Shown here: positions 2,991-64,000 of the stretch, piece by piece | Position numbering within the stretch: the stretch's first letter is position 1 | Layout: each line of letters starts with the position of its first letter | IMG/VR virus record: IMGVR_UViG_3300027805_000011 | Location: 3,017-67,016 of that record | DNA: 64,000 nucleotides | Reading direction: 5' to 3' (one strand) | Source of the DNA: a virus | Notes under the pieces: model-generated | The model's input: only the letters and a program-made list of their open reading frames with translations | Database searches by the model: none | What the model was told of the DNA's origin: nothing | Translations under genes and position numbers: made by a program

Positions 2991-3176
2991 ATGCCGGCCT
3001 ATTACCCAGAAGGTGACACCCCGCTTTTGACCGACAGCTTTGAGCGCCTCCTGCACAAAGCGGTGTCGCTTTTGAGTGAGCAGAACGGCGGCACCGATGC
3101 GCCCGATCCAACCGACTCGGAGGAGACCCTCATGTTCAAGCTGGTGAAAAACCTGAACACCCTGATAAATGCCTAG
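2991..3176 (+). CDS. Small protein of the MPxY(Y/F)PE N-terminal family
   Basis: 61 aa, paralogous to the first 60 aa of the next gene. Confidence 0.75.
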   Translation: MPAYYPEGDTPLLTDSFERLLHKAVSLLSEQNGGTDAPDPTDSEETLMFKLVKNLNTLINA

Positions 3177-59299: not shown

Positions 59300-59764
59300 C
59301 TAGACCCACCGGACCACGGTTCCCGCTTCATGGAACATGGCACATGCAGCCTCGAAGGAGGCACCCCAACGTGTCGGAGCCGTCGACACGTTATGCGAAC
59401 ATGTCGAAGAACCGGCGATCCTTGGACAGATCACCTCGGAGATTCCGGCCTGAATGATGGCGGCGGCGCATTGGGCGCAGGGTTGGATCGGGTAGACCAC
59501 GATCGAGTAGCCAATGAGGGGTTCCTTGGCCGCGAGGATCGCGTTAAGCTCTGCGTGGACCGTGTAGCGTAGTTTGGTGTCGCGGTCACCCAGACGCTCT
59601 GCGTCGTCCTCCACGCCCCTGGGGAGGCCGTTAAAGCCCACGGAGGCCACTGTGCGGTCGGGCCGGATAATAACCGCGCCGACTTGGAGGCTGGGGTCTT
59701 TCGACCAAGTCGCGATGTGCGCGGCCAGTTCGACAAACCGCTCGATCCACTTGGCGTCCATCAA
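59300..59764 (-). CDS. dCMP deaminase
   Basis: SKDPS.QVGA, GFNG.PRG, HAELNA and PCAQC. Confidence 0.9.
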   Translation of the reverse strand: MMDAKWIERFVELAAHIATWSKDPSLQVGAVIIRPDRTVASVGFNGLPRGVEDDAERLGDRDTKLRYTVHAELNAILAAKEPLIGYSIVVYPIQPCAQCAAAIIQAGISEVICPRIAGSSTCSHNVSTAPTRWGASFEAACAMFHEAGTVVRWV

Positions 59765-62055
59765 TAGGGGTTGTTATCCACCTCGACCGTCTCCGGCTTC
59801 GGCCGGGTCAGGCGGTATTTGTTCAGCTTGGCCGCGCCACATCGTTTCGCGATGATCTCGATGTTCGGGTCTTGGCGGGAGACAAGCTGGCTGAGACGGG
59901 TCGAGAGAGTCCTCACCGGCCAATCTCGGATGATGGCGGTGTTGTCGAAGGTGTCGTTGAGAGATTGGAGAAACTCGACCACGGTGCCTTCCCAGACGTT
60001 GATCTTGGCGTCGACCCGCTTCCACCATGCGTTAATAAGGTCGCGCAGTTCGGCGTGTTTGCCGCCGGCATCGATCTTGTCCCGCACCTCTTGGGCAATG
60101 AGTCCACGGACCACGTAGCGGTTGGCCGCGTCGATGTATTTCGGTGGGACTTCCCACTCCTTGATCCAAGCCAGTAGGGCCGGCAGTTCGGTCTCGACAT
60201 CGCGGAGCTCCTCGACGACGGGGCCGTCCTCGTAGGTCTTGAGAGCCAAGGCGATGATCTTGTCCTCATTCGACATATCGAGGGCGGGGACCGCTTTGAT
60301 CGAAACCGGATCGTCGTTGGCTGCGATGACGACACGGCCGCGCCATTCCACCATGATCGGGGTGAGATACTTCTCGTGGTATTTGTGCTTCCCGTGGGCG
60401 ACCAGCTTCTTCACGTAGCTCGCGTAGCGTTGCAGCGCGGACTCGGATTCGGCGGCACGCGAGTCATCGATGATGGCCAGCGGGCTTTGGAAGAGGTCGG
60501 CATTGAACCCGTTACCCTCACCGGAAACCACGGACGAGAGGTCCGCGTAGCCGCCCATTGCCGGAGCAAGGAGGCGTTCGATGAGGAAGGTCTTATAGCA
60601 GTGGACCGGACCGACCAGGATCATGGCTTGCCCCATGTCGAGCTTGCCGCGTTCCGCGGACTCGTAGAAGCGTTTGAACCAGAAAAGGAAAGTGTCCTTG
60701 TAGTCGGGGTGGGTGAAGACGTTGTCGAGGATGGCTGCGTAGCGCGGGAACCCTTCACCCCAAGCCCCGGCGGTGTCGGCCGCTTTGACCAGTTTGATGT
60801 TCTTGGCGGTGTTCAGGTATTTCTTCCCGCCTTCGAACCAGAGTTCGTTCTTGTTGTAGAGCGACGGGCCGGCACCATCGACGCGGCGGTGCTCGCGAAT
60901 GAAGGCTTTGGCTTTGTCCATCGGCGACATGGCGGCACCCTTCGGGGCGCGGTCGCTGAATCCGCGGCATTTGAGTTCGGAACTGAGCATCGCGACCATT
61001 TCGTAGCGCCAGATCCCGTCATCGGCCTTCATAAAGAAGGTTTTGCCGTCGTAGTAGATGTCGTCAAACTGGCCACTCTTCTCCGCTTTGGTGGACGGCT
61101 TGCTGCTATCTGGCGAATCCTGACAGTTATCGGCAAGGGGGGTGGCAGATTGTCCCTCCCCCTCTCCAGCCTCCGGGTTGAAGTAGATGAGGGTCTGGGC
61201 CTTTCCGGTGTCTTTGCGGATGCACCCAGGAACGCGGGTCAGTCGCACGGCCGACATGGCGGCGGGGTCCGCGCCGAGTGGGACGAGGAGGTCGGCGATC
61301 TCCGAGGCTTTGTCGAGGTAGTCGGCGCGGTCCTTGGCGTTGATCCGAACGAGAGCGTGAGCCGACTTCGATCCGGAGGTCGTGACCGAGACGATGGGTA
61401 GGGTGATCTTGGAGAGGACGCGGAGCCAGAGTTCCAGTTCGACCGAGTCGGATTCTATTAAAATATAGTCGTAAGCGACTAGATTTTCCTCCGCCCGGCG
61501 GGACTTCTTCCCGAGCCGTTCGATCGGCTTTAGCTGGCCGTCGACCGGATTGACCATGATCCACGCACCCTCGGTGTTGTTGGCGATTATTCGATCTACT
61601 TCCAGATCCGGAACCTTGTCGTGCCACACCAACTTCCCTTGGCTTTCTTGGATTGTGAAGATGATGTTGTGCTTCCCGCCGTAAAGGCGGCGGAGGAACT
61701 CGGAGGTCGAGATATCGGCCGGTGGGATTGGGGAGGTAGCTTTGAAATCCTCGACCGAGAGCGGGCCTTCCGCAGTCAAGGAGAGTAGAAACTTTTCATC
61801 CTTCTCCCGTTTCAGCGAAACCTTCGGCCGCGGCTCGATGAGACCTTCAGCTTCCGCCCGCACCTTGCGGATGGTGTTGGCGATCTCCATCGGCTGCGGG
61901 TCGCGCTGGAGGTGGTGCGTGATCCATTGCTCGATGAAGGTGTCATCGTAGGCGTTAGCAACCAGCGCGTGAACCGCGCCGAACATCCAGGTGTGGCATC
62001 CTTGGCCGGAGGTGGGGCAGGGGTTGAGTCCGAGTTCTTCAGGTGTGGGTGACAT
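59761..62055 (-). CDS. Primase-helicase fusion (RepB/AEP-like primase plus SF3/D5-like domain)
   Basis: YILIESD, SGSKSAHALV and RLTRVPG in the primase part. C-terminal LVGPVHCYKT, FNADL....LAIIDD, AAND. Confidence 0.75.
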   Translation of the reverse strand: MSPTPEELGLNPCPTSGQGCHTWMFGAVHALVANAYDDTFIEQWITHHLQRDPQPMEIANTIRKVRAEAEGLIEPRPKVSLKREKDEKFLLSLTAEGPLSVEDFKATSPIPPADISTSEFLRRLYGGKHNIIFTIQESQGKLVWHDKVPDLEVDRIIANNTEGAWIMVNPVDGQLKPIERLGKKSRRAEENLVAYDYILIESDSVELELWLRVLSKITLPIVSVTTSGSKSAHALVRINAKDRADYLDKASEIADLLVPLGADPAAMSAVRLTRVPGCIRKDTGKAQTLIYFNPEAGEGEGQSATPLADNCQDSPDSSKPSTKAEKSGQFDDIYYDGKTFFMKADDGIWRYEMVAMLSSELKCRGFSDRAPKGAAMSPMDKAKAFIREHRRVDGAGPSLYNKNELWFEGGKKYLNTAKNIKLVKAADTAGAWGEGFPRYAAILDNVFTHPDYKDTFLFWFKRFYESAERGKLDMGQAMILVGPVHCYKTFLIERLLAPAMGGYADLSSVVSGEGNGFNADLFQSPLAIIDDSRAAESESALQRYASYVKKLVAHGKHKYHEKYLTPIMVEWRGRVVIAANDDPVSIKAVPALDMSNEDKIIALALKTYEDGPVVEELRDVETELPALLAWIKEWEVPPKYIDAANRYVVRGLIAQEVRDKIDAGGKHAELRDLINAWWKRVDAKINVWEGTVVEFLQSLNDTFDNTAIIRDWPVRTLSTRLSQLVSRQDPNIEIIAKRCGAAKLNKYRLTRPKPETVEVDNNPY

Positions 62056-62072: not shown

Positions 62073-63449
62073 TTATTTACGGTAATGTTTGGAGACGATG
62101 GCTTCGGCTCCCAGCGGGAGATCCGGAGCCCAAATTGGTGGGGTCGACATGATTTCTTCGATCACTTGGCGGTGATCTTCGGCGTCATACTCATCGACAA
62201 GGACGACGACTTCGTCGTGGATACGCATGAGGATTTCATAACCGGCGTCTTCTAGGGCGCAGCAGCGGTCCATGAAGACATCGCGGGCAAGCGCCTGCGT
62301 GGCATTTTCTGCGAGCAGACCGCCGTAGAGTTTCACGTCCATGAGCTTCCCGAGCCGCGGGAGCTTGGCGACAATGCTCCCGGTGACGCGGCGAACATCG
62401 CGGTAGACGAGTTCTCGTCCGGAGGGTAGGGGGATGGTCAGTTCTCTGTCGTTCGGGTCGGTGGCGATGCGGAGCGCACGATCGAGCTTGGCCCAGAGTG
62501 CGGTGATCTTCGGGGACGACTCGCGGTAGGACTGCACAATTTGTTGCGATTCCTGTGAGGTAATGTCGAGTCCCGCCAGCATCTTGGCGACGAGTTGGAA
62601 CTTGGCCGCACCGCAACCGTAGCCGAGTCCTAGGACGCGGGCCTTGGCCAGAAAGCGCATCTTCGGGTCCACGTCCTTGAGCGGACGAGGATCGTTGTAG
62701 CCCATCGTCGCTCTGGCGTGCGCCTCGTAGATGTCGATACCGGAGGCGATCAGTTTGAGGAGATCCTTGTCGCCCGCGAGGTAGGGGAGGCAGCGTGCTT
62801 CGATCTGCGCGAGGTCGCAGATGATGAGCGTATTGCCCTTCGGTGCCTCGATGAGGTTGCGGATGTCGACGCCGGCCACTTCGCCCTTGGGGATATTCTG
62901 GGCATTCCAGCCGCCGCCTCCGCTATCCCGTCCGGTCGTGGCACCGAAGTATTTGAGTTCGTAGCCCATCCGGCCGTCCGGCCGCGTCCGGGCGATCATC
63001 GCCTGCACCGTCTTGAGATGTTTATTGGCCTTGCGGTAGTCGCGCACGGCGCGGACCCACGGGAATTGGTCGGCGAACTCGGCTTCCCATGCCGCGCCCT
63101 CGGGATCTTTCTCCGCGAAAGACTTCGGTGAGCGGATGCCCTCCTTCTCGCACTGGTCGCGGATTGCTTGCAGGGAGAGGGGAGGATACTCGCCGCCGAT
63201 CCACGGCAGGAGAGCTTCGGTCCGGCGCTTCTCCTCGATGAGCTTGGCTTCCGCGGCCTTGAGCTTCTCCATATTGACTGGCACTCCGCGCATTCCCATC
63301 TCGCGGGTCATGCGGGAAATCCGCCACTCATGGTCGGGCATCTTGTGTGCGTGCTCCTTCCAGAGCAGGAAGGTGGCCTTGGCGTCGTAGAGTGCGTAGC
63401 GGGCGACTTCTTTTTTGAAGTCGGGCGTCATGTAGGGTGACTTAGGCAC
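62073..63449 (-). CDS. polA: Family A DNA polymerase, part carrying ExoIII and the polymerase domain
   Basis: YALYDA (ExoIII), TGR.SG, DLAQIEAR (motif A), RFLAKARVLGLGYG (motif B), IHDE (motif C). Confidence 0.92.
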   Translation of the reverse strand: MPKSPYMTPDFKKEVARYALYDAKATFLLWKEHAHKMPDHEWRISRMTREMGMRGVPVNMEKLKAAEAKLIEEKRRTEALLPWIGGEYPPLSLQAIRDQCEKEGIRSPKSFAEKDPEGAAWEAEFADQFPWVRAVRDYRKANKHLKTVQAMIARTRPDGRMGYELKYFGATTGRDSGGGGWNAQNIPKGEVAGVDIRNLIEAPKGNTLIICDLAQIEARCLPYLAGDKDLLKLIASGIDIYEAHARATMGYNDPRPLKDVDPKMRFLAKARVLGLGYGCGAAKFQLVAKMLAGLDITSQESQQIVQSYRESSPKITALWAKLDRALRIATDPNDRELTIPLPSGRELVYRDVRRVTGSIVAKLPRLGKLMDVKLYGGLLAENATQALARDVFMDRCCALEDAGYEILMRIHDEVVVLVDEYDAEDHRQVIEEIMSTPPIWAPDLPLGAEAIVSKHYRK

Positions 63450-63615
63450 TCGGCTTGGGAATCGGAATAGGTTGAGCCAAGAGGTAAGGCCGCAGATGCG
63501 ACTTCCGGCTACCGGGCTTGCGGCGGTAACCGACCAAGGCGAAGTCCTCGCCGGACTTGGCGAAGATCGGGAGCAGCCGGCCTTTATCGATGAGCTTTTT
63601 GATTTTAGGATTCAT
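63442..63615 (-). CDS. Small basic ORF inserted within the split polymerase locus
   Basis: 57 aa from ATG 63615; its stop overlaps the polymerase GTG. Confidence 0.55.
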   Translation of the reverse strand: MNPKIKKLIDKGRLLPIFAKSGEDFALVGYRRKPGSRKSHLRPYLLAQPIPIPKPSA

Positions 63616-63814
63616 GTCTGACAAAGGTCTGGTCACTCAGCCACATCGCTTGGAGGTGCTCGTGTGACATGTCCTCTTTCCAGAGGAACGCCGCCTTGCG
63701 GTTGGTTTTCGGATCGTGTTCGAAGGTGACATAGCCATCGTTCTCATGGCCGAAATCCTCCGGTGTCTGCCATCCGCTGATCGCGGTGAATACTTTCAAG
63801 AGTCCTTTGTCCAT
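63605..63814 (-). CDS. Small ORF inserted within the split polymerase locus
   Basis: 69 aa. ATG 63814 has SD AAAGGG and overlaps the end of the exonuclease fragment. Confidence 0.55.
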   Translation of the reverse strand: MDKGLLKVFTAISGWQTPEDFGHENDGYVTFEHDPKTNRKAAFLWKEDMSHEHLQAMWLSDQTFVRHES

Positions 63815-64000
63815 ATCATCCCTTTCATGTTCGTTCGGGTGGATTTACTCATCTTGATTCCGAGGAGCTCGGAGGCCGCTTCCTTGAGCGACCTGGGGTA
63901 TCCCAGGTAGGCCGCGAGGTCGGCCGTATCGAAGACGAAGCGCGGTTTGACCGGAGGCACGGTGCCGGACTCGACGAGCGCCTCGAAGAGCGTCAGGTCA
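63796..64000 (-). CDS. N-terminal 3'-5' exonuclease fragment of the DNA polymerase (start beyond the right edge)
   Basis: Manual translation DLTLFEAL...FDTADLAAYLGYPRSLKEAASELLGIKMSKSTRTNMKGMIWTKDS-stop (TGA 63798-63796), typical of the region after ExoII. Confidence 0.7.
   Translation of the reverse strand, partial: DLTLFEALVESGTVPPVKPRFVFDTADLAAYLGYPRSLKEAASELLGIKMSKSTRTNMKGMIWTKDS

Follow-up and report, generated by a model that had tools for sequence, protein, structure and literature searches.

Several phages have already been reported to encode a family A DNA polymerase (PolA) in pieces. In T7-like cyanophages of the S-SBP1 type, PolA is encoded by an exonuclease gene and a polymerase gene (Czernecki et al. 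2023, NAR, PMC10201439). These result from fission at the level of the gene and not from a frameshift; the halves are predicted to rebuild the canonical fold, leaving the free termini exposed (PMC10201439). In the OM43 phages MEP401 and MEP402, PolA occupies two open reading frames (ORFs) that flank a small unknown ORF (PMC10580990); the cut falls inside the polymerase domain, ORF13 holding the exonuclease and the N-terminal polymerase part and ORF15 the C-terminal polymerase part. LUZ24-like Pseudomonas phages (Bruynoghevirus) have gp25, named ‘DNA polymerase exonuclease subunit’, gp34, named ‘DNA polymerase part II’, and gp36, the polymerase part being split again around an endonuclease VII gene. 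A further split PolA is described here from an uncultured freshwater phage. The stretch analysed (the window) comprises 64,000 nucleotides (nt), positions 3,017 to 67,016 of IMG/VR record IMGVR_UViG_3300027805_000011, a single linear virus record of 71,476 bp which CheckV rates as 100% complete.

The locus lies on the minus strand, in the replication module. An upstream gene (the N fragment) carries the exonuclease motifs ExoI (DFES) and ExoII (HNAAFD), while a separate gene downstream (the C fragment) carries ExoIII and the polymerase domain; two small ORFs, orf69 and orf57, occupy the gap between them. This arrangement is most probably the product of gene fission, which would have left the polymerase as two chains sharing one composite exonuclease site, and the gap as a slot for cargo.

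Reading of the motifs in S-SBP1 gp15 and LUZ24 gp25 allows the positions of the cuts to be compared. S-SBP1 resembles the present phage in having a two-gene family A polymerase that arose by gene fission and is predicted to reassemble, but its gp15 holds all three exonuclease motifs (DLES, HNIIGYD and YCIQD), which places its cut at the exonuclease–polymerase boundary. The S-SBP1 genes overlap without cargo between them, whereas here a gap holds variable genes; the two polymerases are not close relatives. In LUZ24, as here, the exonuclease and polymerase genes stand apart with unrelated small genes between them (eight in LUZ24), yet gp25 has ExoI, ExoII and ExoIII (YDLEG, HNILDYD and YCLQD) on one chain. 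The cut between ExoII and ExoIII in the present phage differs from those of S-SBP1, LUZ24 and MEP401. Because this cut precedes ExoIII, the active site would span two chains, unlike in S-SBP1 and LUZ24. No polymerase relative above 30% identity was found in the cultured phage collection.

Position and conservation of the break

The C fragment matches PF00476 (E 1.1e-28), its translation contains the polymerase motifs DLAQIEAR, KARVLGLGYG and HDEVV, and a genome-wide check found no second copy, making it the sole PolA of the 71.5-kb genome. It begins with a short N-terminal extension, MPKSPY, followed by the ExoIII helix MTPDFKKEVARYALYDA and then by a complete family A polymerase domain. The N fragment matches phrog_17 (DNA polymerase) with an E value of 7.8e-10; its match to phrog_192, on the side of LUZ24 gp25, is weak at best (E 0.062). 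A PF01612 search of the phage’s own genome gave no match, the N fragment being truncated and divergent and falling below the model; its homology is therefore based on the phrog_17 match, the alignment with unsplit homologues and the loci of relatives. Family A DEDD enzymes combine exonuclease and polymerase in a single polypeptide; here the two are encoded by two genes.

The N fragment runs off the end of the window. The sequence beyond this end was taken as L001, a window coordinate being the L001 coordinate plus 58,983. ExoI lies past the window end and the Asp of ExoII at its edge. The likely ATG of the N fragment overlaps the stop of the gene upstream, and the gene closes with MKGMIWTKDS and a TGA at 63796-63798, the same end of the exonuclease frame as given in a preliminary description of this DNA. 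That description had ExoIII resuming about 380 nt later in another frame; the change of frame was reproduced, and the distance from the N-fragment stop to the Met of the helix (63431-63429) is 365 nt, the two genes themselves lying 350 nt apart. The proposed tiling of the gap by ORFs of 69 and 57 amino acids (aa) with overlapping stops and starts was also recovered, the overlaps along the series N fragment, orf69, orf57 and C fragment being 19, 11 and 8 nt (Table 1).

Unsplit homologues of 580–603 aa (for example P0038, P0029 and P0101), which are 50–65% identical over the C fragment, lie in the same module of DUF1599, PolA and DUF5906 primase, but are single polypeptides with continuous PF01612 and PF00476. 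Alignment with such homologues, which the preliminary description had called for, fixes the breakpoint inside PF01612: the N fragment aligns as far as ...MKGxxW and the C fragment starting at xxMTP(D/E)F, the former extending four residues past the homologous Trp and the latter beginning six before the homologous Met. In the unsplit proteins one continuous PF01612 match crosses the break; in P0029, where it covers residues 58-167, the break falls near residue 130. The alignment thereby puts the break in the loop between ExoII and ExoIII, inside the 3'-5' exonuclease domain. A PDB sequence search with an unsplit homologue aligned the polymerase domain only.

The break follows MKGxxW in every split locus, including two more split lineages (L022 and L023). 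With the C fragment as query, 33 of the 120 best protein clusters start at the same point without the N part and 76 are unsplit. An intact N-fragment gene stands upstream in all nine split loci inspected (from IMG/VR, ENA, Logan and JGI). The DEDD exonuclease motifs are complete across the two chains, with DFES and HNAAFD on the N fragment and YALYD on the C fragment; DFE(S/T), HNAAFD and YALxD are retained in all split lineages, and Y18, A19, L20 and D22 of ExoIII are invariant among the split relatives in alignment A2. Pairwise ratios of non-synonymous to synonymous substitution (dN/dS, Nei-Gojobori; for the N fragment over a 128-codon core) show that purifying selection acts on all four genes, with values of about 0.03-0.5; the range for the N core resembles that for the C fragment. 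The sharing of the split by 33 of the 120 clusters and this selection bear out the earlier suggestion that the arrangement evolved and is not a single frameshift error. The split is heritable, old and common to many related phages.

Table 1. Features of the split polymerase locus (window coordinates unless stated otherwise) and pairwise dN/dS of the four genes
Feature	Position	Strand	Length	dN/dS	Remarks
N fragment, 3' part	63796..64000	-			Exonuclease N-lobe; gene runs off window end
N fragment, whole gene	L001 4813..5313 = window 63796..64296	-	about 166 aa	0.09-0.42 (core)
orf69	63605..63814	-	69 aa	0.08-0.32	ATG within last codons of N fragment
orf57	63442..63615	-	57 aa	0.03-0.51	Basic tail; alternative GTG at 63636 gives 64 aa
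C fragment	62073..63449	-	458 aa	0.06-0.28	GTG start overlapping orf57 stop
ExoIII helix MTPDFKKEVARYALYDA	63381..63431	-			Y-x3-D; on polymerase chain
DUF5906 primase/helicase-like gene	59761-62055	-	764 aa		Directly downstream of C fragment

To follow the history of the split, 115 sequences equivalent to the C fragment were placed in a quick maximum-likelihood tree. The window sequence falls inside a 29-row clade in which all members are split (Shimodaira-Hasegawa-like approximate likelihood ratio test, SH-aLRT, 97). This is nested in a 42-row clade (SH-aLRT 90) which also holds the unsplit P0029 group and a branch comprising split P0049/P0052, split P0105/P0112 and unsplit P0101. Branches deeper than the 42-row clade are all unsplit, and at least three changes between the split and unsplit states are needed. 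Because of this, and because synonymous divergence (dS) is saturated between lineages, the split is taken to be derived, old, and recurrent or reversible. The loop itself is 14-17 residues longer in the P0029 group than in other unsplit forms and ends in ...PKRKRM, resembling the MPKSPYM start of split C fragments, while that of P0101 is short and ancestral (WNDMT). Re-fusion in the P0029 group would be compatible with these loop sequences.

Two observations concern the exchange of parts. Between L005 and L007, dN is 0.121 in the N core vs 0.009 in the C part, and in the pair formed by the window and L023 the N core is closer than the C part. This suggests that recombination around the loop exchanges the exonuclease N-lobe and the polymerase part, in unsplit genes too.

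A proposed composite exonuclease site

In the preferred reading, the gene of a family A replicative polymerase was split heritably by fission, within the surface loop that separates ExoII from ExoIII. The products would be two polypeptides: an N fragment of about 140-166 aa with the ExoI and ExoII carboxylates, and a 458-aa C fragment with ExoIII and the polymerase domain. The halves would associate non-covalently and rebuild the DEDD exonuclease fold, giving a composite proofreading site to which one chain contributes D, E and D and the other Y and D. The four genes, packed on one strand, most likely share a transcript and are coupled in translation. The break between the genes would then have become a cargo slot in which small accessory genes come and go.

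Co-folding of the N and C fragments gave an ipSAE interface score of 0.92 in three runs, vs 0.00 for the best of three controls; of 78 solved complexes, 51 attain this mark, as do 2 of 108 mismatched pairs. On the C fragment, the predicted interface comprises residues 5-53, which hold the ExoIII helix and the one after it, together with patches at 153-180 and 348-369, as expected if the N fragment were to complete the exonuclease fold at the position it has in single-chain PolA. The model thus supports binding of the halves, short of demonstrating it, and we infer assembly in trans and active proofreading.

Several points weigh against this proposal or limit it. Both pieces come from the well-known PolA fold, and the co-fold score may therefore reflect model memory and not affinity. 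A promoter and terminator scan found nothing on the minus strand, though this is weak evidence. Every relative that carries orf69 has it adjoining polymerase or primase genes, and it may therefore have a role in the replisome. Finally, the phage is uncultured and none of the RNA runs holds the stretch.

Contents of the gap

The gap varies from 13 nt to 1.4 kb across relatives and holds 0, 2, 4 or 5 ORFs of unrelated content (Table 2). The gap of L021 is only 13 nt, and the split therefore persists without cargo. Turnover can also be seen in a near-identical backbone: one freshwater-metagenome variant has 754 nt extra exactly at the orf57/C-fragment junction (63448/63450), and at the orf69/orf57 junction (63606-63618) its sequence has 201 nt in place of 11 nt, indicating that cargo turns over at gene boundaries.

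Table 2. Contents of the gap in the window and in split relatives
Locus	Identity of C fragment to window	Gap
L021	75%	Empty: TGA + 13 nt + ATG
Window, L002, L003	93-95% (L002, L003)	orf69 + orf57
L006, L013	95%	orf69 + 80-aa orf57 homologue (57-59% identical)
L004	86%	orf69 + four other ORFs
L020	79%	orf69, 136-aa ORF, orf57 homologue, 172-aa phrog_18407 protein
L022	62%	61-aa ORF + distant orf69 homologue
L023	56%	Four unrelated ORFs

Both small ORFs of the window are real proteins of orphan families. AlphaFold2 models reach a predicted local distance difference test (pLDDT) score of 89 for orf69, with two helices and a four-stranded sheet, and of 90 for orf57. Foldseek found no match with E < 0.1 for the orf69 model in the PDB and AlphaFold database clusters, nor for the orf57 model in the PDB. 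An ESM Atlas feature search gave nothing for orf69 and, for orf57, a sub-threshold lead only (0.86) to short DNA-ligase OB-like fragments. A profile search of 1.8 billion representatives with orf69 returned 14 clusters at E<=1e-6 and no distant named relatives. The orf57 homologue of 80 aa is shared by L006, L013 and L020.

The orf69 family occurs in three places: inside the gap where the polymerase is split; directly after the unsplit polymerase gene in the P0029/P0034 group; and, in more distant phages, past the polymerase gene, DUF1599 and two small ORFs, where it extends over the start of the DUF5906 primase gene. This last overlap is seen at L025:3001-3207 and in the context of P0150, and the ancestral order may have been polymerase ... 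orf69–primase. The DUF5906 primase-like gene keeps its position after the polymerase in all relatives examined. Since orf69 lies outside the polymerase gene in relatives and is absent from the gaps of L021 and L023, it is regarded as a gene of the replication module that is not tied to the split. On these distributions, orf69 and orf57 are probably passengers and not polymerase subunits.

Pfam and PHROGs searches of orf69, orf57 and ten cargo ORFs of relatives revealed no function, giving only coiled-coil noise and the phrog_18407 match. The latter belongs to the 172-aa cargo gene of L020 (L020:2990-3505; unknown function, E 3e-27), the sole cargo ORF with a sizeable family, which could be an unrecognised nuclease or mobility gene. 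Splits of T4-like gp43 or of nrdA are cases of free-standing homing endonuclease insertion. An origin of this kind is not supported here, as the same searches found no HNH, GIY-YIG, LAGLIDADG or like domain in any of these ORFs.

Further observations concern the junction in L021 and insertions in the polymerase domain. At L021:3470-3520 (Logan SRR24908315 contig), the N fragment ends CGG CCC TGA, followed by 13 nt and the ATG of the C fragment in the +1 frame, which is open from within NMKG. The sequence CCC_UGA is prone to a +1 shift in E. coli, and a fused polymerase may be made now and then in this phage. In-frame inserts of ~300 aa occur at two or three sites in the C fragments of close relatives, namely after ...GGGGW in P0010, P0011, P0027 and P0112 (in P0010, after FGAH) and after ...LLAEN in P0016 and P0022; the sites correspond to about residue 181 and about residue 381 of the window C fragment. 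The edges of the inserts are intein-like, with Cys as first residue and an end (H/G)N followed by Cys, and in one insert type an LVAxAADGH motif is suggestive of a LAGLIDADG endonuclease. Pfam found no intein domain in them, so that they are intein-like by boundary residues alone. The polymerase family is a hotspot for selfish or inserted elements.

Alternative explanations and implications

The preliminary description had offered a two-chain polymerase with its site assembled in trans, the small ORFs being new subunits or regulators. The two-chain part is supported by the conserved split, the purifying selection, the retained motifs and the co-fold scores, while the role given to the small ORFs is not, given that the cargo differs and orf69 homologues are also found outside the polymerase gene. 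It is accordingly unlikely that orf69, orf57 or both act as functional partners (in assembly, as a processivity factor or as a regulator) within a polymerase operon with new subunits. Their purifying selection, confident folds and overlapping stops and starts fit such a role, as does the fact that orf69 homologues always lie in the replication module and touch the polymerase or DUF5906 primase gene. However, the gap is empty in L021 and holds four unrelated genes and no orf69 in L023, orf57 is replaced, diverged or joined by other genes in close relatives, and the orf69 of distant phages stands apart from the polymerase gene, beyond DUF1599 and two small ORFs. Slightly less likely still is the idea that proofreading is regulated by subunit stoichiometry, allowing a tuned mutation rate or coupling exonuclease assembly to the replisome, with orf69 as an assembly or coupling factor. 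That proofreading has been switched off, an option also raised in the earlier account, the N fragment being a decaying remnant of a pseudogenised exonuclease beside a polymerase that works without it, is very improbable. In several close pairs the N core does diverge a little more quickly than the C fragment, with a dN ratio of at most 2.6, but the dN/dS of the core remains 0.09-0.42 over dS up to 1.6, its frame is intact in every split locus examined, and the acidic residues of ExoI, ExoII and, on the C chain, ExoIII are invariant in all split lineages. Moreover, the N/C dN ratio is near 1 in unsplit pairs as well, bar one mosaic pair.

Phage polymerase genes often host introns. Introns in such genes were discussed for MEP401 (PMC10580990). 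Removal of the insert at the level of RNA or translation, by a group I intron, ribosomal bypass or a programmed frameshift, would give one full-length polymerase, and a TCT/TGA...G/CCT junction would indeed be in frame, with a 5' exon ending in U and an intron ending in G, as group I rules demand. Such removal, which in its RNA-level and bypass forms was also an option of the preliminary description, is nevertheless highly improbable. An Rfam scan of the gap gave nothing significant (an unrelated small RNA, E 0.77, and twister-sister, E 3.1), the gap consists of two protein genes under purifying selection, and orf69 is free-standing elsewhere. Because the gap varies in length among relatives and holds unrelated small genes between differing junction sequences, intron, bypass and frameshift are regarded as excluded. 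The frames agree with this. Two further stops lie in the N frame. The C frame is open for just 55 codons upstream of its start and contains five stops in the printed stretch, of which three are downstream of the stop of the N fragment. Stops occur in every frame between the genes. Group I and group II introns were rejected as candidates, there being no Rfam intron match, a gap of coding sequence under selection, and lengths and junctions that vary across relatives, and so was an intein or split intein, as only four plus six extra residues flank the break and leave no room for intein halves. As to an assembly or sequencing artefact of the contig, the misassembly that the preliminary description had named as its refutation, the chance is negligible: no point in its favour was found, the same architecture recurs in many independent assemblies (JGI, ENA, Logan and NCBI), and contigs of other freshwater and lake metagenomes span 63394-63999 and 63405-63816 without gaps.

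In this phage, and in related uncultured freshwater phages by the dozen, the cut passes through the DEDD fold itself; if the two chains reassemble, each would supply part of the set of five catalytic residues. This amounts to a natural fragment-complementation experiment on a proofreading domain. The loop between ExoII and ExoIII tolerates an interrupted chain, and even the insertion of genes on the scale of kilobases. For annotation, it bears on the 458-aa genes labelled as exonuclease-less polymerases and the 140-aa genes labelled as hypothetical. The finding also bears on polymerase engineering, in the choice of split sites, and on the origin of cargo slots inside essential phage genes.

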